DNA of 64,000 bases from Candidatus Gastranaerophilales bacterium (GTDB lineage: Bacteria; Cyanobacteriota; Vampirovibrionia; Gastranaerophilales; Gastranaerophilaceae), in contig CALUQX010000009.1 in assembly GCA_944323045.1 (NCBI GenBank), positions 11,903 through 75,902 of the forward strand, given 5' to 3'. The translations under genes and the position numbers were made by a program. Below the pieces are notes generated by a model. That model searched no databases. It saw nothing but the letters and a program-made list of their open reading frames with translations, and was not told the DNA's origin. Every line of letters begins with the position of its first letter. The first letter of the stretch is position 1. Positions 2,440 to 41,970 of the stretch are shown here, piece after piece.

Positions 2440-4116
2440 ATGTGTTATAATTCAGAAATGAAAGAGATTAAAATTATTGCACCGGTCAAAAAACCTGATG
2501 ATATTCAGCTTTTCGCATCTAAAACGAATTGCCGCGACTATTACGTTTATTACAAGAAATTCCTTAATAATAATTTCGACTATGTGACGGAATTTGTATC
2601 CGCGGCAAAAAATAACAACTGTCGTATCTACATTAATTTTAAACACGATATCACAGAAGAAAATCTTGCAGAAATAAAAAAAATGCTTAAATTTCTGAAA
2701 ACAGCAGGTATTGACGGCATTTTTATAAACAGTTTTGCAATACTAGAGGCGATAAAAGTGTTTAATCTGCCTTTCAAAATAATTGTTGACAGCTATTTTG
2801 ATATACACAATATCGCAGGAATTGATTTTCTGAATAACTTTCATAAAATTGATGAAGTTATCATTACTGAAGAAATTTACATGAAGAATATTGCAAAAAT
2901 CAAAAAATACACAAAGTTGCCGCTGGCAATAGATTCCGACAATCTTCCGTGGTGTGCGGAGGATATACAAAAACTCAAAGCAATAGACAGTGTTGTAATA
3001 AAAGGAAAATTCGCGACATCCGAAGAAATTCTTGAAGGTATTGAACTTGTAGAAAAAATACTCGCTAACCCTAAAATGTTCAAAAATCAAAAACTGCCTT
3101 TTAAACACGTAAGAAAGAGCATTTATCAGACCAACCATTTTTCCGGCGAAGTTGTCAGCGCAGAAGGTAATGACTTTGAATTTAGTTGTAATATCAAGAA
3201 CTTTGACTGGGATATCAAGCCGCCGCGTATAAAGTCAGATTATGAAGGCGCCAGAAAAAATAAATACCGGATAAACTTACGCCTATCAGAACTCGCGCAT
3301 CTAAAAGAGTTAGAAAAATACATTAAAAAAGTTGGCAAATGTCCGATTTATTCTATTGAATATGGTGAAATACTTGCAACAAGTGATTTAGCGACCAGCA
3401 GTTTCAATGAAATAATAATGAAAGTCAAGAAATTTTGCGTAAAATACGGTATTGAATTTCAGTTATCAACTCCCAGAATCCTTATAGAACGTGACTTTGA
3501 CAGAGTTTATGAGTATGTAAAACAGATTATCCTCTCAGATCCTGAACCTTCATCCTTAATCATCAATAATATCGGGTATTTCTGGATGATTCTGAATGAT
3601 ACGGATATGGACGATTTGCCTTTAGAAATTGGGCAGGGAATAAATTTGTTGAACAGCCTTTCTATAAAGTGTTTAAACAGTCTTACGCCTTTAAATACAG
3701 TTGATTTCACGTCATTTAAAGATAAGGAAAGCGCTATTAAAACTATTAAGAAGATAAAAAATCTTATACCGAACCGCAAATATACAATTGCCGGAAATAT
3801 CAGAGTTCCGAGCTTAGGCTTGTGCCCGCTCAATAATGATAGCGCAATAATTTCGCGCCTGTCTTGTGCAGCACCGTGCCATAGAGGCGGATATGCATTG
3901 CATGACCCGTCACTGGATAAAGTCTATCCGTTTACCTGCGACGGTTTTTGCAGAATGCATATGTTTGAAGACCGGATACTGGCGGATTTTGATGATGTAG
4001 AAGAACTCGCCAAAGCCGGAGTTAACGAATTTGTATTTGATTTCAGCGCCCTGAACGCTAAATTTATACCCGTATTGCTTGAAAAATTTTTTAATAGAGC
4101 TGACTTAAAGGCTTGA
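2440..4116 (+). CDS. U32-peptidase-family-like protein (function uncertain)
   Basis: Long ORF with a TIM-barrel-like N-terminus (IKIIAPV...DGIFINS) and a Cys-rich C-terminal part (CAAPCHRGG...CDGFC). The true start may be M at 2458. Confidence 0.4.
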   Translation: MCYNSEMKEIKIIAPVKKPDDIQLFASKTNCRDYYVYYKKFLNNNFDYVTEFVSAAKNNNCRIYINFKHDITEENLAEIKKMLKFLKTAGIDGIFINSFAILEAIKVFNLPFKIIVDSYFDIHNIAGIDFLNNFHKIDEVIITEEIYMKNIAKIKKYTKLPLAIDSDNLPWCAEDIQKLKAIDSVVIKGKFATSEEILEGIELVEKILANPKMFKNQKLPFKHVRKSIYQTNHFSGEVVSAEGNDFEFSCNIKNFDWDIKPPRIKSDYEGARKNKYRINLRLSELAHLKELEKYIKKVGKCPIYSIEYGEILATSDLATSSFNEIIMKVKKFCVKYGIEFQLSTPRILIERDFDRVYEYVKQIILSDPEPSSLIINNIGYFWMILNDTDMDDLPLEIGQGINLLNSLSIKCLNSLTPLNTVDFTSFKDKESAIKTIKKIKNLIPNRKYTIAGNIRVPSLGLCPLNNDSAIISRLSCAAPCHRGGYALHDPSLDKVYPFTCDGFCRMHMFEDRILADFDDVEELAKAGVNEFVFDFSALNAKFIPVLLEKFFNRADLKA

Positions 4117-4405
4117 AAAAATTTGAGACATATGTAATAATGAGTATAAGAATGGCAAAAACTGAGGAATTTGGATGACAGAGTTGTTGGCAGACCGAAA
4201 AGAACAAAATGTAGTTTTGGGTTTCCACCCCGACAATTTCCGTAGGGTGGGCAAAGCAGAGCGTGCCCACCGCAATGTTGGTAACTCCCAGCAAACGGAA
4301 CTTACTCCACTCACAATCCTCACCCCCTTCACTTTTGGTGCGTGCAAACATGAGCCTTTTGCATCTTGCAAAGTGGCTGAAACCCGCATGAATACTGAGT
4401 TTTGC

Positions 4406-4416
4406 GGGGGGGGGGG
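4406..4416 (+). repeat. homopolymeric G11 tract
   Basis: Counted directly: GC-GGGGGGGGGGG-TGCC. The homologous site upstream of paralog B has G10. Confidence 0.95.
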
Positions 4417-4480
4417 TGCCAAACTCTAAGCCCCACAAGGCTTTCCGGCACATTGCAAAATCGTGTCATAGTCAAAACCC

Positions 4481-4536
4481 GTCATCCCGCAACAGGATTG
4501 CGGCAATACACAGAGATTGTGACCTTGCGGGATCTC
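4481..4536 (+). repeat. polar stem-loop element (GTCAT-stem-loop-stem-ATCTC), copy 1 of a perfect direct repeat
   Basis: GTCATCCCGCAACAGGATTGCGGCAATACACAGAGATTGTGACCTTGCGGGATCTC. CCCGCAA can pair with either of two TTGCGG(G) segments. Confidence 0.85.
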
Positions 4537-5036
4537 AAACAAAAATTTACAGTAGACCGTATTTCCCAATCCGCCAGCACCACCACAAGCCAAAAACTTG
4601 TGAATAAATCAATAGTCCTATTAAAACCTACTTAATAAATAGAATTTATGCTAAATTAGCATTATGACAAAGAAAAAACATAAGGATAAAGAATTATGCC
4701 AAAAGATGAAGAATTAAACCAACAATTGAAGAACCACAAAATTCCTCTCCAAGGGGGAGGAAAAGAATTTGTTAGCGAATGTAATGAGCTTACAAATTCA
4801 GGAGGGGGTCAGACCAGTCCGCATTTATACACTGAGTGGTTGCTAAAGAAGTCCAATCACCCAAATTCGACCCAAAACAACTTGTTTCAGGGTCTAGCCA
4901 ACGTGACAGAGGTCGATGAGTTGAATACCCAAACAGTCGTCGCATTAGTGACCCCTCACCAAGAAAGGCTAGCCTCATTACATTCGTCAAGCCTTTCTAT
5001 CCTCTCCCGCAAGGGGCGAGGAGAACGTCATCCCGC

Positions 5037-5092
5037 AACAGGATTGCGGCAATACACAGAGATTGTGACCTTGCGGGATCTCAAAAGAAAAG
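5037..5092 (+). repeat. polar stem-loop element, copy 2 (identical to 4481-4536)
   Basis: About 60 nt identical to the copy 556 bp upstream, extending one base 5' and three bases 3' of the element. Confidence 0.85.
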
Positions 5093-5118
5093 TAGTAACA
5101 AAAAAGGAGAATAAAACA

Positions 5119-6246
5119 ATGAAACTAAACAACAACAAAGCAGTGGCTCAGACCAATTCCAGAAACGGACTTAACGTCCTAACGTCTTATCGTCTTAACG
5201 TCTTTGGAAGACGCTCCGCGTTTACCCTCGCCGAAGTCCTCATCACCCTTGCGATAATCGGCGTAGTGGCGGCGATAACGATACCAAGCCTTGTTAAGAA
5301 CTACAATGAGCATGCATGGTTAACCGCACAGGATGTGTTCACCAAAAGACTTGAAGTCGCAACCCGCCAAATGAACACCGAGGAAAAACTTGCGGGTTAC
5401 AGTTCGACAATGGATTTTGTAAACGAATTAAAGAAGAAAATCAAAATAACCAACGTATGCGATAGCAACAATTTGAGTAAATGCTTTGAAAGCACAATCT
5501 TAACAGCAGACGGTCAGGAAATAGATGCTACTAATTTAAAGACATCCGCCAAACTTGCCAAAGAGGATTGGGGAACGGAAACAGTTGGCGTGCAGTTTGC
5601 AAATGGAATAAATGCATTAATAGCATATAATCCGCAGACAGACCAACAACCGTTCAATAATCAGTTTAGTGCGACTGAGGCAAGCATGGCAATATTGTAT
5701 GACGTATCCGGACACAAAAATCCGAATACCTTAGGTAAAGACGTGAATCAGAACGCGAATGTTAAAAAATTAGGCTGTTATATTAAGCCGGATTTAGTAG
5801 GCGGTATGTGCATAAGCCAGATACTCGTCCCAGGAACAGGCTATAGCCCTATGACGAAAGCAGAATGCGACCAAGCAGTATCCGACGGAGAATTAGGGGT
5901 AAAGGCTTGCCAATATAATGATGATTATTGGGCAGGAGCAGTGAAAGCATGTGGAGGAATAAACAACATGCCAACAGAATCGCAATTAATAGACCTAGCT
6001 AAGTACGTATATAATACAGACAGTATAAACGGCGGAACAAGTACAACACATGCAACCTTAGACACAGAAAAAGCCTCTCAATTCCTCTCAGCATCCCCAT
6101 ATTCTAATTCGTTCTATGTTTGGTCTGGGCAGGAGAGCAGCAGCCTCGGCGCGTACTACCGCGACTTTCGCTATACCTACACGCTCTGGTACGACAGCAG
6201 CGCCCGCGACAGCAGCATCATACTCGCGGTTTGTCTTGACCAGTAA
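5119..6246 (+). CDS. prepilin-type N-terminal methylation-domain protein with lectin-like hypervariable C-terminus (paralog A)
   Basis: AAAAAGGAGA RBS before ATG 5119. AFTLAEVLITLAIIGVVAAITIPSL class-III signal/hydrophobic helix with E at +5. C-terminal YWAGAVKACGG..MPT..QL..LAKYVY...FYVWSG...AVCLDQ resembles the DUF1566/C-type-lectin-like layout. The ORF is open in frame back to 4696 (see findings). Confidence 0.85.
   Translation: MKLNNNKAVAQTNSRNGLNVLTSYRLNVFGRRSAFTLAEVLITLAIIGVVAAITIPSLVKNYNEHAWLTAQDVFTKRLEVATRQMNTEEKLAGYSSTMDFVNELKKKIKITNVCDSNNLSKCFESTILTADGQEIDATNLKTSAKLAKEDWGTETVGVQFANGINALIAYNPQTDQQPFNNQFSATEASMAILYDVSGHKNPNTLGKDVNQNANVKKLGCYIKPDLVGGMCISQILVPGTGYSPMTKAECDQAVSDGELGVKACQYNDDYWAGAVKACGGINNMPTESQLIDLAKYVYNTDSINGGTSTTHATLDTEKASQFLSASPYSNSFYVWSGQESSSLGAYYRDFRYTYTLWYDSSARDSSIILAVCLDQ
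6121..6243 (+). other. candidate DGR variable region (VR-A)
   Basis: GC-rich island in an AT-rich gene. By hand count, 24 of 30 codons in 6136-6225 end in C. Identical flanks in paralog B, with internal differences mostly at codon positions 1-2. Confidence 0.55.
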
Positions 6247-6261
6247 GAGGCGGAGCCTCTT
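6245..6261 (+). other. stop-codon-overlapping hairpin AAGAGGC-GGA-GCCTCTT (IMH/cruciform-like boundary)
   Basis: Perfect 7-bp stem. Identical copies sit at the 3' ends of paralogs B (24975-24991) and C (48389-48405, minus strand). Confidence 0.8.
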
Positions 6262-6780
6262 AATGGCGTGACTAGGTGATTAAGTGATTAGGTGATTAAG
6301 AGGATTTCAAAATGAGGCAATGCAAGAATCAAGCGTTGCCTTATTTTTATTAACTACTTAGTGCCTCAGTGCCTCAGTGCCTTAGTAACTTAGTAACTTT
6401 CAAGAGAGATCCCGCAAGGCGTCGAATCTAGCGTGACGCGTAAATGCCGCTGCGGGATGACATGGGGCGTTGGCTGCTCAATGTAACAACTGTTCACAGA
6501 TTACTGTTCACTGAGAACCGGTTCGTCGAAATGACAGCACCCTACGACTACGTTCATATTATTTGACCCCTCACCAAGTATTGACATTGCCTGTACTTCT
6601 TTAGCGGGCACCCAAAGTGTAAAAGCGGACTTGTCCGCCCCGCAAGGGGCGAGGAAAATTCAGCGTTGCCTGATTCATGTAACCCGCTTAATCACTTAAT
6701 CACCCAGTCACTTAATCACTTTTGTAACAACCGTTCACCGGTCTTGGTTAAAGCTTAACAAAATCAGGTACTCTGTTTTT
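6262..6780. repeat. mosaic interspersed-repeat region downstream of paralog A
   Basis: Concatenated modules: GTGATTAA 8-mers, a terminator-like hairpin, TAGTGCCT 8-mers, a polar stem-loop (6406-6463), GTTCAC 7-mers, the AGAACCGGTTCGTCGAAATGACAGCACCCTACGAC module (6514-6548) and a 93-nt module (6646-6738). Confidence 0.85.
6646..6738 (+). repeat. 93-nt conserved module (GGGGCGAGGAAAATTCAGCGTTGCCTGATTCATGTAACCCGCTTAATCAC...TTTTGTAACAACCGTTCAC)
   Basis: Identical by eye to 25315-25407. Partial reverse-complement copies at 41084-41159 and 33868-33919. Confidence 0.85.
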
Positions 6781-6921: not shown

Positions 6922-6993
6922 AGCGGGAGACGAGGCTCGAACTCGCGACATCCTCCTTGGCAAGGAGGCATTCTACCACTGAATTACCCCCGC
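6922..6993 (-). tRNA. tRNA-Gly (anticodon GCC)
   Basis: Reverse complement GCGGGGGTAATTCAGTGGTAGAATGCCTCCTTGCCAAGGAGGATGTCGCGAGTTCGAGCCTCGTCTCCCGCT folds as a cloverleaf. Anticodon loop is TTGCCAA; T-loop is GTTCGAGCC. CCA is not encoded. Confidence 0.9.
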
Positions 6994-7142: not shown

Positions 7143-7997
7143 TTATTTAACTGCGCCCTCGTTTTCTCCCGAAATAAAATATCTCTGCATCGCAAGGAAA
7201 AATATTATTATAGGAATTGTTGAAAGTATTGAACCTGCAGCAATAAAACGCCAGTTGGAACTGAACATACCCTGCAAATTATTCACTCCAACAGGCAGCG
7301 TGTACATTGCCTCTTTAGTTAAAACAATACTTGGCCATAAAAACTCACCCCATGAGCCTATAAAGGTAAATATTGCAAGTACAGCCAGAGATGGCTTAAC
7401 CATTGGTAAAAGAACCTTTAAAAATATTTGAAATACATTGCAGCCGTCAATTATTGCCGCTTCTTCCATTTCTTTAGGTATACCCAAAAACGCCTGACGC
7501 ATAAGAAATATCCCGAAAGCACTCACAGCAAAAGGCATTATAAGCCCGATGAATCCTGCAATATTATTTACACTATCAACAAGATGAAGTTTAATCGTAA
7601 TCAAATATACAGGCAGCATAATCGCCTGAAAAGGTATCATAATCGTTGCAAGTATCGCAAAAAACGTCACCTTCTTGCCTCTAAATTCCATTCTCGCAAG
7701 CGGATACCCCGCCATTGCAGAAAGTATCAGATTTAATAAAACTGTCCCGCCTGCAACTATCATACTGTTTACAAAATACCCGATAAAATCTACCTTCTGC
7801 CATACACCGGAATAATTACTCCATGTAAAATCCGACGGAATAATCTGCGGCGGATACGCAAAAATATTTTCTGCATTGCCTTTTAATGAGGTTGAAATCA
7901 ACCAGATAAACGGGAAAATTGACAATAATGAAACAAAAATCAATACTGCATGTGTCCAAAATCCTGATATGTGTTTTTTCATCACGTCTAACTTCAT
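7143..7997 (-). CDS. ABC transporter permease (carbohydrate uptake type, MalG-like)
   Basis: Six predicted TM segments. The EAA loop motif (EEAAIIDGCNVFQIFLKVLLPMVKP) is typical of binding-protein-dependent permeases. Confidence 0.85.
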   Translation of the reverse strand: MKLDVMKKHISGFWTHAVLIFVSLLSIFPFIWLISTSLKGNAENIFAYPPQIIPSDFTWSNYSGVWQKVDFIGYFVNSMIVAGGTVLLNLILSAMAGYPLARMEFRGKKVTFFAILATIMIPFQAIMLPVYLITIKLHLVDSVNNIAGFIGLIMPFAVSAFGIFLMRQAFLGIPKEMEEAAIIDGCNVFQIFLKVLLPMVKPSLAVLAIFTFIGSWGEFLWPSIVLTKEAMYTLPVGVNNLQGMFSSNWRFIAAGSILSTIPIIIFFLAMQRYFISGENEGAVK

Positions 7998-8866
7998 AAC
8001 TGATACCTGTTCTTTTCAAAACAAAAAATATTTATACAAGAAAATATCATTACAATTACCAGAAGAACAACCGCCATAGCAGATGCCATTCCCAAATCCA
8101 GATTCTCAAACGCTTTCTCGTATATATAATAAACAATAGTTTTGCTGGAATTTAGCGGACCGCCTTTGGTCATAACATAAATTTCTGCAAAAACTTTCAT
8201 TGCGGAAATTGCACTGATTGTTGTGACAAGTGCAATTGTCGGCATTATATGCGGAATTGTCACGGTTAGATGTTTGGTTAAAAAATTAGCCCCGTCAATG
8301 TCGCACGCTTCGTATAATTCTTTTGGAACACTCATTAAAGCCGCAAGATAAATTATCATATAATAACCGATACCCTTCCATATTGTAACAATCACAACAG
8401 AAAGAAGAGCCCATTTTGTATCCGTAAGCCAACCGATTTTTTCAAATCCTAAAGATGTAACAAGATAATTCAAAATCCCCTGATCTGCATAAAGCCATTT
8501 GAAAGCAATTGCAGCAACTACAATAGAAACAATTACCGGCAGATAAATCAAAATTTTATATAAAGTTATGCCGCGGATTTTCTGGTTGATTAAAATAGCC
8601 AGAAACAGCGGTATAACAGCCAGCACCGGCACTGCTAGTATAAGGTATAAAAATGTGTTTATCAAAACTTTATAAAAAATCGGATTGTGAAAAAGATTTA
8701 TATAATTTTGGAGCCCGTAAAATTCCGGAGAATAAATATTTGATGAATAATCTAAAAAACTGAGGATAAATGTCTGGAAAAACGGTATAAAGAAAAATAC
8801 CAGTAAAACAATTCCTGCTGGCAGTAAAAAAAGATATGGTGCGTATTTCCCGTAATATTTAAACAT
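7994..8866 (-). CDS. ABC transporter permease (carbohydrate uptake type, MalF-like)
   Basis: EAA-like loop (YEACDIDGANFLTKHLTVTIPHIMP). 4-nt overlap with the downstream permease gene. Confidence 0.85.
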   Translation of the reverse strand: MFKYYGKYAPYLFLLPAGIVLLVFFFIPFFQTFILSFLDYSSNIYSPEFYGLQNYINLFHNPIFYKVLINTFLYLILAVPVLAVIPLFLAILINQKIRGITLYKILIYLPVIVSIVVAAIAFKWLYADQGILNYLVTSLGFEKIGWLTDTKWALLSVVIVTIWKGIGYYMIIYLAALMSVPKELYEACDIDGANFLTKHLTVTIPHIMPTIALVTTISAISAMKVFAEIYVMTKGGPLNSSKTIVYYIYEKAFENLDLGMASAMAVVLLVIVMIFSCINIFCFEKNRYQL

Positions 8867-11846: not shown

Positions 11847-12089
11847 TTATCCCTGCATTAAATCATCATAATTTATATTATGTGCGCGGGCGTAATCTAT
11901 AAATTCTTTTTCTTTTTTGGAAACTCGTATCCGAAATTCCAAAACATTACCGGTCTTTGGTTTACGTCCGGCGTTCTCACGCTTTCCGCCCCATTTTAAT
12001 ATTGCTTTGTCTATATTTTCACGAATTTTTTGTTGACGCTCCAGTGGTAATTGATTGATTAAATCATCTGTTGTAATTTTGTTTCTCAT
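11847..12089 (-). CDS. putative antitoxin / small DNA-binding protein
   Basis: 4-nt overlap with the upstream RelE/Gp49-like gene. Basic GGKRENAGRKPK segment. Confidence 0.4.
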   Translation of the reverse strand: MRNKITTDDLINQLPLERQQKIRENIDKAILKWGGKRENAGRKPKTGNVLEFRIRVSKKEKEFIDYARAHNINYDDLMQG

Positions 12090-12430
12090 AATAGTAATTC
12101 CTTATTAGCTTCTAAATATCTGTCTATATTTCGGTGCGCTTGTTCTATATATCTTTTAGGTGCTTTTTGCGTTTTTTTCAATACAATAAATCCTATAATT
12201 ATTATTTTTTTCTTTGCATATTTAAAGTAAGCTCTTACGCCACTTGGTTTTATTTCATATAGCCCATCACCTGGCGAATTTATATTTTTGTATTTTGTGC
12301 CTATTTCTTCAAATACCTTTATTGCCTCCAATATTTTGTCCTGACTTTTTTCATCAAGTGCACTATATTGTTCAAGGGCTTCGTCTGTGTATTCTGCAAT
12401 AAATTGTGCCATAATTTCACCTGAATCCAT
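12086..12430 (-). CDS. RelE/ParE-superfamily toxin (phage Gp49-like)
   Basis: Size and motifs (LYEIKPSGVRAYFKY...IIIIGFIVLKKTQKAP) resemble Gp49/HigB-like killer proteins. Paired with a small downstream gene. Confidence 0.55.
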   Translation of the reverse strand: MDSGEIMAQFIAEYTDEALEQYSALDEKSQDKILEAIKVFEEIGTKYKNINSPGDGLYEIKPSGVRAYFKYAKKKIIIIGFIVLKKTQKAPKRYIEQAHRNIDRYLEANKELLL

Positions 12431-12827: not shown

Positions 12828-13820
12828 TTATTGCAAGTTTGTTGCACATAATATATTGTGCTTTTCTTCAGGAGTGTATCCATACCCACCATGCCAGCTA
12901 AAACATTTACACATGCGTTTACTGGAATTTTCAAAATAACTTGTTTCATTACCCCAATAGCAACTATCTGTAGGAAAAGGAATGCCATTATCCTCTATGT
13001 CATCGTGTAAATCTGACATATAGCTAAATGATAATGTTTGCATATTGGCGGCTTGACATATTTTTTCATAATCATACCAACTACTTTTTCCCATGTAAAC
13101 AAAACATTTATTATCAAATTCCAGGTCACATCCACTGGAAAAACGTGCTCCATTAAAACTTCTAATATCATTAATATTTTCACTATTAGTTTCTCGGTTA
13201 GGTGATTTTGCGCCGTTTACATCCGTAATATATGCTATCATATTTGTGCTATCAGATGTATATGCATACTCTTTGCTTTTGTTTTTACTGATTTTTATTG
13301 ATTTTTTAGTCCATTGTGGTGCTGATGTTGCATATACAGGTGATGACTGTGTATTATAGTTTAAAATTATGGATGTTCCATCTGCAAGTATTAACCCAAC
13401 ATTGTCAGTGGAATATCCATCGCCAAGACTTAAATTTTTACCTGTTTTTGCACGGCTAACATCAAACTCATTACCGTCATTATCAATAATTTTTGATGTA
13501 GACCAGCATGCCGCAATGTTATTTTTATTACATCTTTTTATTATTTTCAAATGTTTTTGTAAATTATCCACAAATTCATCTGTACTGTTATATGTAGTTT
13601 CTAACTCACCGAGAGCACGCATTTTATCAACAGCTTGCGTAATTTTATATGCAACATTAGCTTCTTTATTTGCCCATACAGTTGCAGTTATATTTTTCAT
13701 AATATTAGGTATTGTTATTGCTGCTACTACCCCGATTATCGCCATTGTAATAAGTACCTCTGCAAGTGTAAATGCTATTTCATGATTCTGTTTGTTAATC
13801 TGATTTTTTACAATTTTCAT
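12828..13820 (-). CDS. prepilin-type N-terminal methylation-domain protein (P4)
   Basis: MKIVKNQINKQNHEI-AFTLAEVLITMAIIGVVAAITIPNI. DVNGAKSPN motif shared with the other paralogs. Cys-rich C-terminal domain. Confidence 0.8.
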   Translation of the reverse strand: MKIVKNQINKQNHEIAFTLAEVLITMAIIGVVAAITIPNIMKNITATVWANKEANVAYKITQAVDKMRALGELETTYNSTDEFVDNLQKHLKIIKRCNKNNIAACWSTSKIIDNDGNEFDVSRAKTGKNLSLGDGYSTDNVGLILADGTSIILNYNTQSSPVYATSAPQWTKKSIKISKNKSKEYAYTSDSTNMIAYITDVNGAKSPNRETNSENINDIRSFNGARFSSGCDLEFDNKCFVYMGKSSWYDYEKICQAANMQTLSFSYMSDLHDDIEDNGIPFPTDSCYWGNETSYFENSSKRMCKCFSWHGGYGYTPEEKHNILCATNLQ

Positions 13821-14935: not shown

Positions 14936-16036
14936 CTATCCTTGTGCAGCAAAAGTTCCGTGGTAAACGCCGCGCAGCGCCTGCTGTAATTCATTTTTAT
15001 TATCTGAAAATTCTAAAGCAGTTTCCGGTGTTATGTATCCGGCTTTGCAAAGCTGGTACAAAGAAGTGTTCATTGTAATCATTTTGTTGAATGAACCTTT
15101 TTTAACCAGATCATAAATCTCTTCTAATTCATCTTTTACAATAAAATCTTTTACAGTAGAAGTGCACACAAGAATTTCACATGCCGGACGTCTGCCAGTA
15201 CCGTCTTGAGTAGGTACGAGTTTTTGAGAGACAGTACCGCGTAATATTTGTGCTAGCTGTTCTCTTACAAATTGTCTGTCTCCCGGGTCGAACATATTTA
15301 CAATACGGTTAACTGTTTGTACAGCATCATTAGTGTGGATTGTTGCGTATACGAGGTGACCGGTTTCAGCAGCTTTGAGGGCGCTGATAATTGTTTCTTT
15401 ATCTCTTATTTCGCCGATAAATATAACATCAGGATCCTGACGCAATGCGTATTTTACCCCGTCAGGGAAAGACGGAGTATCAAGTAGAATCTGTCTTTGA
15501 GAGACAATACTCATATTGTTGGTAAAGATAAATTCAACCGGATCTTCTATTGTAATAATATGTTTTGCATAGTGATTGTTAATATAGTCAATCAAAGATG
15601 CGATAGTTGTAGATTTTCCGCTGCCTGTCGGACCTGTAATAAGTACAAGACCGTTATTTAGCATCGAAAACTGACTCATAGCAGCAGGAAGATTTAATTC
15701 TTTAATATCTTTGATTTTATAAGGAATAACACGAATAGCAAGCGCTCTGTGGTTCAACTGTCTGCTTGTGTTTACCCTGAAACGTGAACAGCCCGGTATT
15801 TCAAAAGAAAAGTCGAGGTCAAGATATTGTTCATAATTAGATTTTAAATGTTTTGGAACAAGCGTTTCCAAACTTCTATTAAGGTCATCATCGGTCAGTG
15901 TCGGCATTTCAGTAAATTTAAAAATTTCACCGTCTTTTCTCATGCACGGGTATTCTTCTACATACAGGTGTGCGTCCGATGCACCTATCGCAACAATGTT
16001 CCTTAAAAATTCTATTATATCAAAATCTTTCATCAT
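14936..16036 (-). CDS. pilT: type IV pilus twitching-motility ATPase PilT
   Basis: Walker A GPTGSGKST, Asp box, Walker B (DPDVIFIGEIRD), His box and the PilT signature AxxTGHLVxxTxHT. Start set at MMKDF (GGGAGA RBS) rather than the ORF-track start 16069. Confidence 0.9.
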   Translation of the reverse strand: MMKDFDIIEFLRNIVAIGASDAHLYVEEYPCMRKDGEIFKFTEMPTLTDDDLNRSLETLVPKHLKSNYEQYLDLDFSFEIPGCSRFRVNTSRQLNHRALAIRVIPYKIKDIKELNLPAAMSQFSMLNNGLVLITGPTGSGKSTTIASLIDYINNHYAKHIITIEDPVEFIFTNNMSIVSQRQILLDTPSFPDGVKYALRQDPDVIFIGEIRDKETIISALKAAETGHLVYATIHTNDAVQTVNRIVNMFDPGDRQFVREQLAQILRGTVSQKLVPTQDGTGRRPACEILVCTSTVKDFIVKDELEEIYDLVKKGSFNKMITMNTSLYQLCKAGYITPETALEFSDNKNELQQALRGVYHGTFAAQG

Positions 16037-16336
16037 ACTTCTCCCATAATACAGAATTATAACATCCAAATTATGCTTGGCAAAAATGCAAAGTTATGTA
16101 AAGCGGTAGGGTAATAACAAATTTATTTGTAACAAAAGTTTAACAAAAGACATAACACTGGCAATTTTTATCCGCCGAAATACTTTATTAAAATGTAAGG
16201 GAAATTTAAGATTAATAAAAAGGATTTTAATTGGATATTTAGAATAATCAAATAATTCTTCACGATGTAAGAAAAAAGATTATAAGAAAAGTTTATTTTT
16301 ATACTCTCTCTCTTAATATCCTCGTGTTTATTTAAT

Positions 16337-16472: not shown

Positions 16473-16811
16473 ATGCCAAAAGAAATAGAATACTATACAA
16501 CAAAAGATAATAAATGTCCTTACATTGAATGGTTCAACACTTTATCCAGAGATTACCAGTCTAAAGTAATCAAAAGAGTAAACAGACTTGAAGACGGGTT
16601 ATATGGCGATTGCAAACGTCTAACTAACAGCAAGTTAAGTGAATTACGTCTAGCCTTCGGTAAAGGGTATAGAATATATTTCAGAGAACTGGACAATGTA
16701 ATTATACTTATTCTCGCAGGCGGAGATAAATCAGACCAGAAGCGTACAATAAAACAGGCAGATATATACCTTGAAGACTACCTGAACAGGAGAAATAACA
16801 ATGACAATTAA
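16473..16811 (+). CDS. addiction-module killer protein (RelE/HigB-like)
   Basis: CPYIEWFNTL...VIKRVNRLEDGLYGDCKRL...LSELRLAFGKGYRIYF...VIILILAGGDKSDQ matches the putative addiction-module killer family pattern. Confidence 0.7.
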   Translation: MPKEIEYYTTKDNKCPYIEWFNTLSRDYQSKVIKRVNRLEDGLYGDCKRLTNSKLSELRLAFGKGYRIYFRELDNVIILILAGGDKSDQKRTIKQADIYLEDYLNRRNNNDN

Positions 16812-17106
16812 GCATAATGACTTTGTAAATGAATGGTTACAAGATAAAAATAATCAAAATATATACTTACGTGATAGTCTGCTTGAATTTTCTGAAGACG
16901 GGGACTATACAGAGTTCTTTCGTTCACTGGAACAGGTTATAAAGGCACGTACAACTGTTAAGCAGTTTGCAGAGGCAATAGGTATGCAAAGAACAAGTCT
17001 TGTTGATCTTTTGCATGGCAGAACAAAAGCTCCGACTATTGCAACTATAAATAAAATCCTTGACGGTCTTGGATACGAAATAAAAATACAAGAGAAATCT
17101 GCTTAG
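16801..17106 (+). CDS. addiction-module antidote protein (HigA-like HTH)
   Basis: Overlaps the killer gene by 11 nt. FAEAIGMQRTSLVDLLHGRTKAPTIATINKILDGLGYEIKI is HTH-like. Confidence 0.7.
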   Translation: MTIKHNDFVNEWLQDKNNQNIYLRDSLLEFSEDGDYTEFFRSLEQVIKARTTVKQFAEAIGMQRTSLVDLLHGRTKAPTIATINKILDGLGYEIKIQEKSA

Positions 17107-22956: not shown

Positions 22957-23270
22957 AATCCACCACCTTTGTATATTATATTACCATAATCTGAATACAC
23001 AGGAGCAGGATTAATGAAAATTAACATAGAGGACTTGCAAAATTTAGCAACATATGTCATAATGAAAATGTGAACAAAAACCGAGGAGTTCAATGACAGG
23101 AAGTATGATGGAACGATTAGAAGAAAATAAATTCTTAATCACTCAATCACCTAATCACTTAATCACTTTAAAAAATGTATGTTTGGGGTTCCACCCAAGC
23201 AATATCCTCACCCCACTTACTTTTGCGCCATGCGATAGGGCTGAAACCCTTGCTATGACTGCATTTGCGC

Positions 23271-23280
23271 GGGGGGGGGG
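23271..23280 (+). repeat. homopolymeric G10 tract
   Basis: Counted directly. Same flanks as the G11 tract at 4406-4416. Confidence 0.95.
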
Positions 23281-23376
23281 TGCCAAACTCTAAGCCCCAC
23301 AAGGCTTTCCGGGCACACGAAGTGTGCTCTTACATATGGAAACCTGCTAAAGAAGTGCAGCCCCTGCCACATTCAT

Positions 23377-23403
23377 GTCATTCTGAACTTGTTTCAGAAT
23401 CTC
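23377..23403 (+). repeat. polar stem-loop element (short variant)
   Basis: GTCAT-TCTGAA-CTTGT-TTCAGA-ATCTC. Same flanks as the CCCGCAA elements but a different stem. Confidence 0.6.
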
Positions 23404-23836
23404 CTCATCGGTCAGTCAGTAGACCGTATTTCCCAATCCGCCAGAACCAACACAAGCCGAAAGCTTGTGCATAAGTCAATAGTCCTATTAAAGCCTACTT
23501 AATAAATAGAATTTGTGATAAATTAGTATTATAACAAAGAAAACATAAGGATAAAGAATTATGCTAAATGATGAAGAATCAAATCAACAATTGAAGAACC
23601 ACAAAATTCCTCTCCGTGGGGGAGGAAGAAATTTGTTGCCGAACGGAGAGAGGCTAGAAATTTCAGGAGGGGGTCGGACCAGACCACATATAGTCCCCCC
23701 ACCCGAACCACTAAACTCACGAAAGTTCGTTAAGTGGTTCCGCCCTCCCCTCAGGAGAGGGCACCAAGCCAACCACGAGGAAACAATCAGTAATACACAA
23801 TCAGAAGATAGAAACAACAGAAAGGAGCAACTCCAA

Positions 23837-24976
23837 ATGAAAACCAAAAACAAAATCAACGAATCAACCGCTCAGACCAATTCCAGAAACAACGGTACTC
23901 ACCATACTCACTTCACTCACTTAGTCACGTCCCCAAAAGCCGCGTTTACCCTCGCCGAAGTCCTAATCACCCTCGCAATCATCGGCGTAGTAGCGGCGAT
24001 AACGATACCGAGCTTAGTCAAGAATTACAATGAAAAGGCATGGGAAAGTGGACAAAAAGTTTTTGAAAACAGATTACTTGTAGCTACACGTCAGATGAAC
24101 ACAGAGGAAAAATTGGCAGGTTATTCTTCAACCATGGACTTTGTGAATGAGTTGAAAAAATATATTAAAATAACCCGTGTCTGCGATAATGACAACATTA
24201 CCAAATGCTTTAATAAAGAAGTAATCTGGAGTGCTGATGAAGAGCCGGTAGACATGTCAAAAGTAACAGATGCATCAGCTTTTGGTCTGGATTGGGAGAC
24301 TGATACGGTAGCAGTTCAGTTTGCGAACGGTGTAAATGCAGTAATTGCTTACAATCCGAATGCAACACAAGACCCATATAATAACCAGTTTGCGGCGACC
24401 TCAAAATCCATGGCAATATTGTATGATTTGTCAGGAAACAAGAATCCGAATACAAATGGTAAGGATATAAAAAATATAAATGTAGACCAGTTAGCCGGTG
24501 TAGAAGGCTGTTTGATACCTGAGTTAAAAGATACAATGTGCATAACGAAAATTATATCTCCGGAAGAATACGGATATTTATCATATTCAGAATGTACCGA
24601 GGCTAAGAATAACGGCGAAATAGACGTAGATGCATGTTATAATGGCTCAAGTCCAGATTATTTTGCGGGCGCAGTAAAAGCATGTGGAGGTAAGAAAGCA
24701 AACTTACCAAGCCAAGACCAGCTAACGCAGCTAGCAAAATATGTATATGGAACAGACAGTATAAACTCCAGCGGTTATACATATGACCTAGCTTTAGACA
24801 CAACCAAAGCCTCCCAATTCCGCTCAGCAAGAGGTACTGATTACTTCTATGTTTGGTCTGGGCAGGAGTATAGCCGCGACCGCGCGTACTTCCGCTTCTT
24901 CTACTCTACCGGCACGAACGGGAACGACTGCAACCGCCACTACAGCTACGCTCTTGCGGTTTGTCTAGACCAGTAA
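23837..24976 (+). CDS. prepilin-type N-terminal methylation-domain protein with lectin-like hypervariable C-terminus (paralog B)
   Basis: AAAGGAG RBS before ATG 23837. AFTLAEVLITLAIIGVVAAITIPSL. Central 79 aa identical to paralog C. C-terminal FYVWSGQE...AVCLDQ. The ORF is open in frame back to 23561. Confidence 0.85.
   Translation: MKTKNKINESTAQTNSRNNGTHHTHFTHLVTSPKAAFTLAEVLITLAIIGVVAAITIPSLVKNYNEKAWESGQKVFENRLLVATRQMNTEEKLAGYSSTMDFVNELKKYIKITRVCDNDNITKCFNKEVIWSADEEPVDMSKVTDASAFGLDWETDTVAVQFANGVNAVIAYNPNATQDPYNNQFAATSKSMAILYDLSGNKNPNTNGKDIKNINVDQLAGVEGCLIPELKDTMCITKIISPEEYGYLSYSECTEAKNNGEIDVDACYNGSSPDYFAGAVKACGGKKANLPSQDQLTQLAKYVYGTDSINSSGYTYDLALDTTKASQFRSARGTDYFYVWSGQEYSRDRAYFRFFYSTGTNGNDCNRHYSYALAVCLDQ
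24853..24973 (+). other. candidate DGR variable region (VR-B)
   Basis: By hand count, 22 of 29 codons in 24869-24955 end in C. Flanks identical to VR-A. Confidence 0.55.
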
Positions 24977-24991
24977 GAGGCGGAGCCTCTT
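24975..24991 (+). other. stop-codon-overlapping hairpin AAGAGGC-GGA-GCCTCTT
   Basis: Identical to 6245-6261. Confidence 0.8.
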
Positions 24992-25540
24992 AATGGAGGC
25001 ACTAAGTTACTAAGGCACTAAGGCACTAAGGATTAAATTGAAATAAGGTAATGTGAAACGCGCACATTGCCTTATTTTTTGTAAAGAACTTGTTCCCTTA
25101 ACAACAAGCAATGTGGAAAATTCCACGTTGTCTGTTGTTGTAACTACTTAGTGCCCTAGCCCCCTAGTGCCTTAGTAACTTCTGTTTCTGAGATCGCGCA
25201 ACTGCTTGGTTGCTCGCAATAAACGGGTCTACGGGCTGCTCCGCCGGCTCCACGCCGCCGTGTGCGCCCTGCGCCCTCTGCTCGCAATCCGCAAGTGCGC
25301 GATGACATGGTATAGGGGCGAGGAAAATTCAGCGTTGCCTGATTCATGTAACCCGCTTAATCACTTAATCACCCAGTCACTTAATCACTTTTGTAACAAC
25401 CGTTCACTGTTCACCGTTCACAATTCACAGAGAACCGGTGCGTCGAAACGACAGCACCCTACGAATAACTTCTTTAGCCGCCACCCAGAGTATAAGAGTA
25501 GGCTACGCCTACCTGCGCCTACCCACTTGTAAATGTTTTG
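24992..25540. repeat. mosaic interspersed-repeat region downstream of paralog B
   Basis: Same module set as 6262-6780 in a different order. It also holds a polar stem-loop (25190-25310) whose loop is a very GC-rich ~100-nt insert. Confidence 0.85.
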
Positions 25541-26802: not shown

Positions 26803-26908
26803 TTAAGACGTTAGGAAGTTAAATAAAACAGTCTTAGTTAAATTTTGTAAAATATATATTTATTGAAATGCACTTAACGTCTTAGCGTCTTAACGTCCCA
26901 ACGTCTTT
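26803..26908. repeat. inverted CTTAACGT-type 8-mer units flanking an AT-rich spacer (MITE-like)
   Basis: Left arm TTAAGACGTTAGG is the reverse complement of units in the right arm CTTAACGTCTTAGCGTCTTAACGTCCCAACGTCTTT. Confidence 0.6.
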
Positions 26909-32493: not shown

Positions 32494-33288
32494 TTAGATT
32501 TTATACGGATAATTGTCTTTATACTCCCAATTGTCCATCCGTAGTAAATCTGAACAGTATTTGCCGTTTTGGGCGCATAAATCGTATATATGCTCATGGT
32601 AATTTTCGTAGCGAGATGGTTGGTACCCATAAGTCCCAAAGTATTGTTTGTTTGTTTCAAAATAGGTTTTTCTGGAGCTTACCAGTGGCGAAAAAAGGAA
32701 GCGGTATCTGTCATAACCCTCTTTATCCGGTCCTTCGTCTCCGTTAACATCATAAAAGAAATCTATACAATCCCCGTTGTTTACAAAAAATGTGGAGCCG
32801 TCATTTAGATAGACTTTAGTTAATTTGACAATTGTTCCATTATTTATTTCGATTGGTTGATTCTCTTCTATTTTTAGATATTTCATGTATGGCAGTATGT
32901 ATGTATTTACAAATTCAAATCCGTCTTTTGCATTGGTTAATCTGGCTTGTTCAATTTCATCCTCATCTTCCAGTTCATTTATGTTTATATACTCTTTTTT
33001 ATTCCAGTATTCTACGGCGCCGTTATGCACAGTTGACATTTCAATCGCCTGTTGCATTGTAGAGTAGAATTTTTGCAATTTTGTTGAATATTCTTTCTTT
33101 TTGTAACCTTGTATTAATGACGGAACAGTAATCGCTGCCACCACGCCGATTATTGCGAGGGTGATGAGAACTTCAGCGAGCGTAAACGCGTTGGCTCGTT
33201 TGAGGAAGTGAGTGCTGTGAGTAAAGTGAGTACCGTGGTTTCTTTGATTAGGCTTTGTACTTGTTTCTTCTTTTGTGTTGGTTTTCAT
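32494..33288 (-). CDS. prepilin-type N-terminal methylation-domain protein (P6)
   Basis: ...GTHFTHSTHFLKRAN-AFTLAEVLITLAIIGVVAAITVPSL. YDVNGDEGPDKEGYDRYRFLF motif. The leader is encoded by GTGAGT-type 9-mers (33205-33235). Confidence 0.8.
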   Translation of the reverse strand: MKTNTKEETSTKPNQRNHGTHFTHSTHFLKRANAFTLAEVLITLAIIGVVAAITVPSLIQGYKKKEYSTKLQKFYSTMQQAIEMSTVHNGAVEYWNKKEYININELEDEDEIEQARLTNAKDGFEFVNTYILPYMKYLKIEENQPIEINNGTIVKLTKVYLNDGSTFFVNNGDCIDFFYDVNGDEGPDKEGYDRYRFLFSPLVSSRKTYFETNKQYFGTYGYQPSRYENYHEHIYDLCAQNGKYCSDLLRMDNWEYKDNYPYKI

Positions 33289-33770: not shown

Positions 33771-33950
33771 GAGTGAGTAAGGTGAGTGAAGTGAGTATTG
33801 TGAGTAAAGAACTGTAGTCGTAGGGTGCCGTCGTTTCGACGCACCGGTACTCAGTGACCAGTGAATGGTGAACGGTTGTTACAAAAGTGATTAGGCGACT
33901 GGGTGATTAAGTGATTAAGAGGGTTTGAAGTGGACCCCTAAAAGTGGACC
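33771..33950. repeat. mosaic repeat fragment abutting the IS3 remnant
   Basis: GTGAGTNNN 9-mers (33771-33809), the GTCGTAGGGTGCCGTCGTTTCGACGCACCGGT module (33817-33848), GTGAAC units and the GTGATTAAG module. Confidence 0.8.
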
Positions 33951-33951
33951 T

Positions 33952-34650
33952 CTAAGCAGCGAGTAATTTCAGTGCGAACTGCTTAGGCGACAATTTGTTT
34001 TTATTCCACTGCGGTCTGTTATTGTAATCATACATGTATTTGTCCACAACGGCAACAACATCTTCAAAAGTTTTACAATTGTTAAATTCAACATAATCCT
34101 TCATATGCCCGAAAAAACTTTCTACAACAGCATTGTCCAATGGCGTTCCAGGACGTGACATAGAATGTATCTTCTGGTATTTAATCATTAAGTCATTAAA
34201 TGCTTTGCTTGTATATTGACAGCCTCTATCTGTATGCAACATCTTTATTCCTCGTTCCTTCCCTAATAATCGCTCTGTTGAATTTAGGATAAATTCCTTA
34301 CTTTGTTTTGAGGATAAAGCATATTCAAGAACTTCTCCTGTTTTGACATCTATATACACATTTAAATAACATTTATTGTTTTGGTAATAAATATACGTAA
34401 CATCTCCACAGACCACAGTCCTTACTCGCTGTGATTTAAAGTCGCGGTTTAATATATTTTCTTTAATGTATTGCTCTTCTCATAAACATTGATTAATTTT
34501 TTGTTTTTTACGTATTTGACATATTAAATTTTCTTTTTTCATTATTCGTTGCACCTTTTTTCTATTAATAGTAAGCCCATAAAGTTTTAAAGCAATGAGT
34601 TTAATTTGTCGTGACCCTTTTTTATTACAAAACAAAATAAAGGCAAGGTT
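33952..34650 (-). pseudogene. IS3-family transposase (OrfB/rve integrase) remnant, 5'-truncated with an in-frame TGA
   Basis: DDE/rve motifs (CGDVTYI, HTDRGCQYTS, SRPGTPLDNAVVESFF). The upstream frame continues (KKGSRQIKLIALKLYGLTINRKKVQRIMKKENL) but is interrupted by an in-frame TGA at 34480-34482. No OrfA and no terminal inverted repeats were seen. Confidence 0.75.
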
Positions 34651-40981: not shown

Positions 40982-41970
40982 CGTAGTTTGGGGACAATTG
41001 AAAAATAATAGCGGGCACCGATTCGGAGACCCGTGAGCAGTCGTAGGGAGCCGTCGTTTCGACGAACAGGTTCGCTGTGAATTGTGAACGGTTGTTACAA
41101 AAGTGATTAAGTGACTGGGTGATTAAGTGATTAAGCGGGTTACTTGAATCAGGCAACGCCACCATGTCATCGCGCAGCGGCATAGTCGCAATTCTAGCAA
41201 GTCGTAGATAATGCGCGATCTCTACCAATAACGTCATCCCGCAAGCGGCATTTACGCGTCACGCAAGAATCGTCGCCTTGCGGGATCTCTTATGGAGGTC
41301 GTTAAGTTACTAAGGCACTGAGGCACTAAGTAGTTAATAAAATCAGGTAATGTGGAATGCAGCATTGCTTGTGTTTTTCATGTCCTCCCCTGGAGGGAGG
41401 ACCGGAATTTTTAATTCCGAGGAGGGGGACGCGAACGTAGTGAGCGTTTAATAACTAGAACACTGTCAAGTGCAACATGGGCTAGATGCTGAAACAGTCT
41501 TGGTTGCTCGCGTGTGTCTTACTCGTTCGCGTTTAGCAGGTCTTCGGTTGACGCCAGCAATGGCAGAGCCATTTTGCCGTCAAGCCTCCGCCTTCCGCTC
41601 TCTCGCGCAACGGCGTTCCGGACTTTCTTTTCAGCGGCTTTGCCGCCTCCAAAGAAAGCTCCTACAGCCTCTGCTCGCAATCCGCAGTTCAGCATGACAA
41701 AAAATAAATAAGGCAACGCTTGAATCTTGCTTTGCCTTATTTTGAAATCCTCTTAATCACCTAATCACTCAGTCACCTAATCACTTTAAAACAGAGATCG
41801 CGCAACCCGTGCGCGATGACATGAAAACATCCGACAACATGGGATATCCACATTGCCTGATTAATTGTAAATACTTTACTCACATTACTCACCCCACTCA
41901 CTTTAGTCACTCTTTTTGAGATCACGCAAGTCATCAAGTCTTGTGCGCTCCGTCCTTCGATTCAATATAC
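40982..41970. repeat. orphan ~1-kb non-coding mosaic repeat region
   Basis: Module set of the paralog A/B downstream regions in inverted orientation. Includes two tandem polar stem-loops (41166-41222, 41233-41289), a third at 41794-41823 and a GC-rich island at 41470-41700. Only repeat-derived ORFs are present. Confidence 0.8.

Follow-up and report, generated by a model that had tools for sequence, protein, structure and literature searches.

Tip adhesins diversified by diversity-generating retroelements (DGRs) are described for the type V pili of Bacteroides (bioRxiv 10.1101/2024.11.15.621889), and a DGR survey lists a GspG-type pilin domain among the rare domains that bear a variable region (VR) (PMC11661182). 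Putative pilin structures linked to DUF1566 have also been cited (PMC6642488), and type IV pilins onto which an adhesive module has been grafted are well established (PMC8179133, PMC9934059). Here we asked how a family of type IV pilin-like genes in Candidatus Gastranaerophilales compares with these systems. The analysis covers a stretch of 64,000 nt (below, the window; ~35% G+C), with flanks examined for 10 kb beyond each end. According to our preferred reading, to which we give a probability of about 55%, two genes of the window, A and B, are stored paralogues of a DGR-written pilin-like family, with static VRs, a G tract that has become uncoupled from the gene and a tail of dispersed repeats. 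An earlier inspection of the same DNA (the original prediction) had not recognised the combination as a described system. Taken as a claim that nothing similar is known, this was too strong in view of the tip adhesins and GspG-type pilin targets just mentioned: DGR-diversified pilus adhesins, modular pilins and poly-G switches are known, and their combination on a type IV pilin-like family is a new variant. Our literature search found no paper linking DGRs with Melainabacteria or Gastranaerophilales, and the global DGR survey makes no mention of pili.

Like the C-type-lectin targets of known DGRs (Bordetella phage Mtd, Treponema TvpA, Legionella LdtA and the DUF1566 type), the genes described here carry the VR at their extreme 3' end. 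The likeness to the Mtd, TvpA and LdtA systems extends to an AAC-rich template repeat (TR) that gives rise to NNC codons in the VR, to the order of Avd, TR and reverse transcriptase (RT), to a stem-loop after the TR and a hairpin after the VR, and to the presence of several targets per genome, some of them remote. What differs is the scaffold, which here is a type IV pilin-like protein, and the number of paralogues per genome (at least seven in one metagenome-assembled genome, MAG), most of the sampled ones being apparently static. With the Bacteroides tip adhesins the family shares the gut habitat, the action of a DGR on the adhesive head of a pilus subunit, and modular, redundant pilin families. 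On the other hand, type V pili rely on a lipoprotein signal and strand exchange, whereas the present system is of type IV, with a class III signal peptide, PilD and PilT. Furthermore, the phylum is a different one, and poly-G tracts in the leader are not reported in the accessible part of the preprint. PilB (with a von Willebrand factor A module) and PilC (with a lectin module) of Streptococcus sanguinis likewise join an N-terminal pilin module to a grafted ligand-binding module, with a tip or surface location expected (PMC8179133, PMC9934059), but they are static single-copy genes, while here the VR is written by a retroelement and the family is much expanded.

An open reading frame (ORF) listing combined with alignment gave seven pilin-like genes in the window, namely the paralogues A, B and C, which lie within its 64 kb, and four further ones. 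Gene A (5119-6246, plus strand) encodes a modular type IV pilin-like protein of 375 aa, counted from the proximal ATG. Locus B (23035-25530, plus strand) comprises a promoter-like site (23035-23063), an upstream ORF (uORF) with a G10 tract (23093-23293), the gene itself (23837-24976, plus strand, with an in-frame extension from 23561), a VR (~24845-24972), a hairpin (24974-24992) and a repeat tail. Paralogue C (48404-49564, minus strand) has the pilin body and the 3' hairpin of A and B, and it is without the long leader, the G tract and the adenine-poor C-terminus of NNC codons; along 677 nt its DNA is 84% identical to that of B, and it ends in a shorter C-terminal segment. The four parts that had been proposed for the locus (a structured leader with a G tract, a prepilin-type N-terminus, a conserved stalk with a hypervariable C-terminus, and a stop-overlapping hairpin with a mosaic tail) are all present in A and B at or near the places where the original prediction had put them, and C and the four further pilin-like genes are additions to it.

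The evidence for a DGR lies in the 3' ends of the genes. The VR of A spans 6112-6242 (plus strand), with variable codons from 6136 to ~6225, and its 3' end GCGGTTTGTCTTGACCA resembles an initiation of mutagenic homing (IMH) site. Adenine makes up 19% of the last ~100 nt of A and 18% of those of B, as compared with 36-37% in the gene bodies. Within the VR, 24/30 codons of gene A and 22/29 codons of gene B have C as their last base (body of A: 83/328), and the differences between A and B fall mainly on positions 1 and 2 of such codons. In 50 homologues the consensus is FYVWSGQE-xSxxxAYxRxFxSTxTxWxxxxRxxSxxLAVC, where the x positions have a column entropy of 3.2-3.6 bits and the conserved positions between them at most 0.7 bits. 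This adenine-poor pattern of NNC codons is the footprint expected of a DGR with AAC codons in the template at the x positions, and it supports the proposal of a DGR-type VR in the C-terminal domain. Paralogue C keeps the VR flanks TTCTATGTTTGGTC and GCGGTTTGTCTTGACCA as well as the hairpin, with ordinary codons inside; it may be either a copy that was never written or one that was overwritten.

We predicted the template from the VR consensus, translated it into a synthetic peptide alignment and ran this against a protein collection. The single match (P0186) is an ORF called across a TR. It reads FYVWSGKEYSQNNAYNRNFNPTNTNWNNNNRNNSNKLAVCLGN / MTFYVWSGKEYSQNNAYNRNFNPTNTNWNNNNRNNSNKLAVCLGNEILQLFH and lies on contig L097, between a bAvd gene and an RVT_1 gene with the motifs IGNLTSQ...YVDD. 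Further cassettes were reached through homologues of the RT, one of which is named Candidatus Gastranaerophilales by its source, and related TRs are also found in L103, L107, L108, L109, L098-L102 and L118/L119. The TRs of these related Gastranaerophilales encode the predicted asparagine-rich template exactly, and every TR ends in ...GCGGT(G/T)TGC(C/T)TAGG(T/C/A)AATGAA, with a small stem-loop behind it. Five TR lineages were recovered; in three of them the cassette stands beside a pilin-like paralogue (L098-L102, L118/L119), and the order at L098-L102 and L118/L119 is pilin-like target, Avd, TR, RT. No target was called at L097, L103 and L107, where the target-side flank is short, or on the short contigs L108/L109. 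The expected co-occurrence of the gene family with a DGR RT is thus seen in relatives, in three cassette lineages beside pilin-like targets, one of which is active.

The window itself gave a different picture. The original prediction required an RT and a TR in the genome; cassettes do exist in related contigs, but neither an RT nor a TR was found in the window and the 10 kb that flank it on each side. When 60-nt segments of the VR were slid along both strands of the window, nothing reached 55% identity except the paralogue, and the same scan excluded the leader as the site of the TR. With ORF lists and a motif regular expression no RT was revealed in the window, and in the 119 fetched loci only that of a prophage-type DGR in L082. 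This separate, prophage-like element (L082, 18154-20524) belongs to a Melainabacteria-like contig and has a pilin-like gene at a distance of 8 kb; its RT has the IGNLTSQ motif, the C-terminus of its adjacent target resembles those of formylglycine-generating enzyme (FGE) and Mtd, and its VR is unrelated to that of the pilin family. No RT was found in the flanks of the target homologues P0024 and P0003, and a scan for AAC-codon density over all loci gave nothing. A VR/TR pattern applied to GTDB genomes matched no TR and eight VRs (six in one Gastranaerophilales MAG and two in a MAG labelled Muribaculaceae), along with two unrelated matches in Acidobacteriota. DNA patterns specific for the TR had 0 matches in viral and metagenome contigs, these patterns being too strict at the non-variable codons.

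With heterologous TRs as the reference, the mismatches of A and B are strongly concentrated on adenines. Compared with the closest TR (L103), A mismatches at 24/48 adenines versus 15/93 other positions (Fisher p ~5e-5), and B at 21/48 adenines versus 16/96 other positions (Fisher p ~1e-3). The gene of L098-L102 was recovered from five samples. Its bodies are 97-100% identical among L099-L102, and the value of ~31% that L098 gives in a raw ungapped comparison was attributed to an offset of one residue in length. With respect to its own TR the VR mismatches at 16-20/43 adenines and at 0-1/82 other positions, and each sample has a different VR. This DGR is active on a pilin-like target. Note that in the VR (~8603-8734) the changes fall on TR adenines only, save for two single non-adenine changes.

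These data bear on the idea that the hypervariable C-terminus arose without any retroelement, by positive selection and gene conversion among paralogues. Recombination between paralogues is real, as the swapped N-terminal and 3' modules show, and two paralogues of one MAG (L009, L013) have near-identical VRs. However, variation restricted to the first two positions of NNC codons, with adenine depleted, a predicted asparagine-codon template that was then found beside Avd and RT, and substitutions of the active relative at TR adenines (0-1/82 elsewhere) leave this explanation with hardly any probability, and at the level of the family it is effectively refuted.

Next, we compared A and B between samples. 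The VR of A is the same in a cluster of eight contigs apart from a single residue difference, and the VRs of B are identical in three contigs, including a member whose N-terminal module has been swapped. Thus, of the hypervariable display that had been proposed, active diversification is seen in the relative L098-L102, but the VRs of A and B are static across samples. Most VRs of ten other clusters likewise do not change from sample to sample. Where whole VRs differ within a cluster, the length and the sequence beyond the VR are changed too, which points to recombination of 3' cassettes rather than to retrohoming. We infer that A and B are stored copies, static or very rarely rewritten.

Alternatively, a DGR elsewhere in the genome might act in trans on A and B as remote and still active targets, with the stop-overlapping hairpin as the retrohoming cruciform. 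The VR signature of both genes would fit, the order Gastranaerophilales has cassettes whose TRs are closely related, remote targets are a known feature of DGRs (PMC8144416), and the clusters 4, 5, 6 and 10, defined at 90% identity, contain wholly different VRs. On the other hand, these swaps alter length and sequence beyond the VR, so that recombination fits them better, and the RT-adjacent target differs in 5/5 samples, in contrast to VRs that are identical or nearly so in 8 contigs for A and in 3 for B.

The 3' ends of the genes bear on the same question. DGR targets have an IMH at the 3' end of the VR and a GC-rich hairpin or cruciform 4-34 bp downstream, whose stem structure is required while the stem sequence is not (PMC3240598). 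The hairpin of A (6244-6262, plus strand) is TAAGAGGC-GGA-GCCTCTTA, with an 8-bp stem and a 3-nt loop; it overlaps the stop codon and can be extended to 6240-6266. This stop-overlapping hairpin is stable (-10 to -13 kcal/mol, z -4 to -7), is 95-98% identical among A, B and C, and forms the first module of the mosaic tail. The active target ends in ...TTAGGTGAT (GGTGAT) TAA, followed by a 21-nt spacer and the hairpin GCGCGATTTT-TCCAG-AAAATCGCGC, the counterpart of which in L118 is GGTGGATTTC-TTCAG-GAAATCCACC. A and B instead read CT(T/A)GAC, then CAG, then TAAGAGGC-GGA-GCCTCTTA. In other words, they do have a hairpin 3' of the VR, but it differs from the canonical one of the clade, and the GGT codon (IMH region), the old stop codon, the 21-nt spacer and the canonical hairpin of the active targets are all missing. 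Loops of 5 nt (T[C/T]CAG) or 3 nt (GGA) also set the family apart from phage DGRs with their 4-nt GRNA loops (PMC3240598).

Other paralogues show how the hairpin may have been altered. In two remote paralogues of one MAG (L008, L012) the right arm after TCCAG is replaced by TAAGAGGC...GCCTCTT and octamers of the GGCACTAAG type, and in others (L009, L013, L002) deletions fuse GGTGAT to TCCA. This junction pattern suggests that an octamer-repeat element invaded the loop of the original DGR hairpin. A stable hairpin that directly follows the VR in all three paralogues speaks for A and B as active remote targets, but both genes are without one IMH-like codon and the canonical hairpin. Moreover, C has the same flanks and the same hairpin with no NNC signature, from which it follows that hairpin and flanks are insufficient for writing. 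We consider active remote writing of A and B possible but rather unlikely, and prefer to see them as static copies.

In Neisseria, pilC varies in phase through a poly-G tract in the region coding for the signal or leader peptide. A similar switch operates in the relatives of A and B. In 21 related pilin-like genes a ribosome-binding site (RBS) and an ATG are followed by 5-17 codons, a tract of G8-15, 4-40 further codons and the motif [GA]FTLAEV, with predicted cleavage before F (loci L021, L024, L027, L034, L037, L047, L052, L053, L055, L061, L064, L065, L069, L072, L077, L082, L084, L091 and L095). The tract thus lies inside the leader-peptide coding region, where its length sets the frame, and, as in pilC, a poly-G a few codons after the start shifts the frame by slippage and differs in length between samples. 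For example, at the L098-L102 locus (~7475-7511) G10 is in frame (ON), G9 is out of frame (OFF) and the interrupted tract GGAGGGGGGG is in frame; likewise L091 (G10) is in frame and its counterpart L095 (G11) is out. In the relatives, poly-G length differs between samples and switches the frame. As assembled, only 1/21 of the genes is in frame, and the other 20 need one G more or fewer (binomial P ~0.002 against an expectation of one-third). Such a bias is far stronger than expected of a free-running switch. Transcriptional slippage at the tracts might give low expression from genes that are apparently out of frame.

In A and B, unlike pilC, the tract has been displaced into what looks like a fossil uORF. 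The leader of A (4117 to 5118) starts at a promoter-like site (4113-4141, plus strand) with TTGAAA, a 17-nt spacer and TG-AATAAT, an extended -10; it matches the consensus at 10/12 positions, and its function is assumed from this match. Homologous sites stand upstream of B (23035-23063) and in L002. An uORF of 84 aa follows (4175-4429, plus strand) and ends 13 nt past the G11 homopolymer (4406-4416, plus strand). In its 3' part, the local sequence ATG-N15-G11-...AAG GCT TTC, with the ATG at 4388, reads ...KPHKAF in the -1 frame (4437-4445). The only two G runs of at least 8 in the window are this one and the G10 upstream of B (23271-23280), each at the end of a short ORF that is preceded by a promoter-like site and an RBS; the corresponding tract is G11 in L001 and G12 in L002 and L003. 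In both A and B, the tract lies 0.55-0.7 kb upstream of the pilin start, with repeat-rich DNA in between, and in A none of the three frames stays open from G11 to the pilin ORF, owing to stops at 4427-4429, 4605-4607 and 4633-4635. A ghost start that would be in frame with the pilin at some G length is ruled out by these stops. A second candidate, GGGGGAGG at ~4752 as a locked poly-G tract, was rejected as well, being an arm of a common hairpin repeat CCTCTCC...GGGGAGG that is found elsewhere. The stochastic gating that had been proposed is thus supported by the frame switching in relatives, but in A and B the stops isolate the tract, which lies outside the pilin ORF there and inside it in the 21 related genes. 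From its position and surroundings, the G11/G10 tract is best read as the fossil of an ancestral prepilin start and switch.

The rest of the leader consists of repeat modules. A hairpin-forming dispersed repeat unit (4480-4545, plus strand) has a direct repeat with 97% identity at 5026-5091. The module at 4550-4769 (plus strand) is shared with B (91% identical to 23417-23634); it contains a hairpin cacaag...cttgtg, an AT-rich promoter-like stretch, an RBS and an ATG at 4696, and corresponds in position to the proximal start region of L001 and L002. From this ATG an in-frame extension of 141 codons (4696-5118, plus strand), made of translated repeat modules, leads to a second RBS and the ATG at 5119. 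The chance that 141 codons stay open is ~0.1% (3 stops per 64 codons), and by its sequence the extension may be either a long leader peptide or a 5' untranslated region. B has a comparable extension of 92 codons, and homologues have up to 246. Shared blocks of the A and B leaders are 78-100% identical. In L001 the gene for a protein identical to A is preceded by another leader, which is shorter, and L002 has the same fossil start 200 nt upstream of the gene; these differences indicate that the leader is a mosaic that recombines between paralogues. The leader had also been described as structured. It is moderately so, with folding z values of -2.5, -1.0 and -3.25 for its thirds, and the structure is accounted for by the hairpin repeats. 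A search of the whole window against Rfam matched the leader to no family, and it is accordingly not a known riboswitch, intron or other RNA family.

Could the tract still act on A and B from a distance? The end of the uORF (4429, 4607, 4635, depending on the frame) might cause Rho-dependent polarity or change the RNA structure, so that G10/G11 would gate the genes indirectly. The tract and its flanks are 100% identical over 42 nt between A and B and are conserved in L001, L002 and L012, the short ORF has a promoter-like site and an RBS in front of it, and the tract lengths are 10, 11 and 12 among paralogues and loci. However, between tract and gene there is another AT-rich, promoter-like region that has an RBS of its own, the protein of the short ORF is poorly conserved, and upstream of A the tract is G11 in both available copies (window, L001). 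We regard indirect gating as distinctly improbable, and keep to a tract that has been uncoupled.

Short repeats that are dispersed or in tandem between genes are familiar from repetitive extragenic palindromes (REP), from miniature inverted-repeat transposable elements (MITEs) and from the short tandemly repeated repetitive (STRR) sequences of cyanobacteria. The tail of A resembles them, with arrays of about four octamer or nonamer copies and hairpin modules in intergenic mosaics; it is unlike them in that the arrays cluster near pilin-like genes and enter the coding sequence of leader peptides. The mosaic tail of A (6263-6780, plus strand) has octamer arrays at 6268-6300, 6360-6399 and 6687-6721. 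Its modules recur at 25000-25530, 33773-33925 and 48015-48390, and at the non-pilin site 41039-41911, where the right half of the hairpin and the following modules lie between a glycosidase-like gene and a peptidase gene. A tandem repeat of the octamer CTTAACGT (5170-5204, plus strand, 4.4 copies) lies inside the leader-peptide coding region of A, and an array of the same type is present at 26873. The hairpin and the mosaic tail of the original prediction are both real and the hairpin is stable, but by these recurrences the tail is a genome-wide dispersed element and not specific for the locus.

A few further observations concern the arrays. Those of about four copies (CTTAATCA, AGTGCCTC, CTTAACGT, GTGAGTNNN) are scattered in intergenic DNA, at 5170-5204, 6268-6399, 6687-6721, 23134-23168, 24997-25390, 26873-26907, 33206-33232, 33772-33919, 41101-41911, 48023-48382 and 49422-49447. 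They cluster near pilin-like genes and reach into leader-peptide coding DNA (for example, THFTH is encoded by GTGAGTNNN units). No mobilising enzyme (transposase, RAYT) was linked to the arrays in this analysis.

What the VR is mounted on is indicated by the N-terminus. It scores 24.7 bits against Pfam N_methyl (PF07963, cutoff 21.2) and 23.7 bits against TIGR02532 (cutoff 16.3), and A, B and C pass both thresholds, in line with the prepilin-type N-terminus claimed before. Cleavage of A is predicted between A34 and F35, ahead of TLAEV (5218-5223). The core of the class III signal peptide (5218-5290, plus strand) reads A(-1)F(+1)TLAE(+5)VLITLAIIGVVAAITIP, and its columns A34-P56 are invariant; F35, E39 and the hydrophobic alpha-1 stretch do not vary across the 50 homologues. 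The motif AFTLAEV, with predicted cleavage after its first residue, is present in 7/7 pilin-like genes of the window, which means that -1 is alanine and not glycine in all of them (relatives have G or A). A prepilin peptidase and a pilus ATPase, as expected for a type IV pilin, are encoded in the window and confirm the earlier assignments: PilD of the A24 family (62887-63918, plus strand; PF06750 4.9e-34, PF01478) and a PilT-family retraction ATPase (14936-16069, minus strand; TIGR01420, 408 bits, 3.8e-122). Apart from these two, no pilus assembly operon was found in the window.

The full-length AlphaFold2 model of A (mean predicted local distance difference test, pLDDT, 74) begins with a disordered leader, from which a long alpha-1 helix leads to a body of beta-sheet; the C-terminal domain is set apart from this body. 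As in modular type IV pilins, a pilin module is predicted to be joined to a distinct domain of 150 aa (5794-6243, plus strand) that folds alone and contains the VR. This domain, which had been called lectin-like, is modelled with a pLDDT of 93, but all of its structural matches are non-significant (Foldseek E 0.16-4.3 overall). The top PDB matches are the C-terminal domain of Legionella Lcl (DUF1566), Bdellovibrio Bd2740 and CLEC12A, non-significant at E 1.6-1.9 and template modelling (TM) scores of 0.34-0.48. Among viral structures, matches are collagen-repeat, phage DUF1566, Fib_succ_major and poxvirus C-type lectin proteins, again non-significant with a best E of 0.16. Sequence profiles of the domain gave nothing significant against PDB and Pfam, neither DUF1566 nor FGE-sulfatase, and Foldseek with the full-length model returned no meaningful structural neighbours. 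A lectin-like fold is plausible from the models.

The same features leave room for proteins that are processed by PilD without entering a filament, be it as membrane-anchored or secreted lectin-like proteins or as pseudopilins of a secretion system. The alanine at -1, the large globular part (~340 aa), the whole model without a match to solved pilins, and PilT and PilD as the only pilus genes of the window are what one would then expect. Yet F1, E5 and the hydrophobic alpha-1 segment of assembled pilins are invariant, the model has a long N-terminal helix followed by beta-sheet, a PilT retraction ATPase implies a true type IVa pilus, and S. sanguinis provides modular pilins with grafted adhesive modules (PMC8179133, PMC9934059). 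To us a non-filament role seems unlikely, and display on a type IV pilin-like fibre is assumed below.

Taken together, the following course of events would account for A and B. The family would have a common protein plan, with a prepilin leader, a PilD-type site AFTLAE (cleaved before F), a pilin body and a C-terminal lectin-like domain, whose ligand-facing residues would be encoded by the DGR variable region. Cassettes of Avd, TR and RT would be located elsewhere in the genome, and beside such a cassette the TR adenines would be copied into the VR of the target as random bases. A and B would carry VRs written in this way, and would have spread through duplication and through the exchange of 5' and 3' cassettes in recombination. 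The usual switch of the family would be the poly-G in the leader-peptide coding region, which turns the frame on or off; a repeat-rich insertion with a new RBS and start codon would have uncoupled the G tract from A and B. Finally, the stop-overlapping hairpin and the tail would represent a dispersed octamer-repeat element sitting in the loop of a former DGR hairpin.

Several points weigh against this reading. All cassettes come from related contigs, and the TR and RT of the window's own genome are not among them. The VR of A is one codon longer than any TR found, and even with the best TR, 16 non-adenine positions of B do not match; with 15-16 such mismatches and the extra codon of A, the cognate TR, if it exists, is not one of those found. 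That the VRs are static was concluded from a small number of assemblies (8 contigs for A and 3 for B, from cohorts that are partly shared) and from consensus sequences, which would conceal minority variants and slow rewriting. There is a hairpin just 3' of the VR, if a non-canonical one, and A and B might still be competent targets; since stem structure and not stem sequence matters (PMC3240598), some residual competence is possible. The upstream ORF with the G tract could affect the expression of A and B through polarity. The structural matches of the putative lectin-like fold are non-significant (E 0.16-1.9, TM 0.34-0.48). Lastly, alanine at -1 is atypical for PilD substrates, and filament assembly is a proposal drawn from sequence.

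More tentatively, one may think of a system in two layers, in which a DGR continuously rewrites the lectin-like tip of a master pilin next to its RT, versions of it are archived as paralogues, and poly-G tracts gate each of these, mostly in the OFF state. Archiving may proceed by duplication and cassette recombination and may resemble the archive-and-switch arrangement of Neisseria. We consider this possible, although the odds are clearly below even.

Some observations on the family and its surroundings may be added. In one contig the body and VR of P0309 are identical to those of B and the N-terminal module is different, and in several homologues (P0058, P0010, P0086, P0067) the leader has a doubled motif, AFTLAE...AFTLAEV. 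The swap and the doubling suggest that 5' cassettes have been replaced or inserted more than once at the motif of the cleavage site. A truncated ORF of 154 aa (33952-34416, minus strand) resembles a transposase or integrase core of the DDE type and adjoins mosaic repeats and a pilin-like gene. Two pairs of small genes, judged by eye from their translations to be similar to toxin-antitoxin or addiction modules, are found at 11847-12430 (minus strand), just upstream of the pilin-like gene 12828-13820, and at 16473-17106 (plus strand), just upstream of pilT. The only noncoding RNA detected in the window with Rfam and ARAGORN is a tRNA-Gly (6922-6993).

Other observations concern the assemblies. 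Two loci from CAYUIW01, which is titled uncultured Muribaculaceae (L015, L016), have pilin-like genes of the Gastranaerophilales type with the same VR family and the same SLT neighbour; these contigs are probably mis-binned. Assemblies of the same species from other samples break at the start of the A leader, just past a U32 peptidase gene (left ends of L110, L112 and L113), and family members are often found on very short contigs (many of 1-3 kb). Repeats and paralogy appear to fragment the assemblies, which would hide pilin-like loci from DGR surveys.

Gastranaerophilales are widespread and uncultured in the human and animal gut, and their attachment is nearly unstudied. If the proteins are displayed on pili, a notable share of a small genome is spent on adhesins that are written by a retroelement and can be switched individually. 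Such an outlay points to host immunity, phages or changing glycan landscapes as sources of strong pressure. To the study of DGRs, one rewritten target next to many frozen VRs with altered 3' elements offers a natural contrast, from which the requirements for a competent target could be defined. In the field of type IV pili, a hypervariable module is added to the concept of modular pilins, and the near-universal out-of-frame state of the poly-G leaders is a puzzle.

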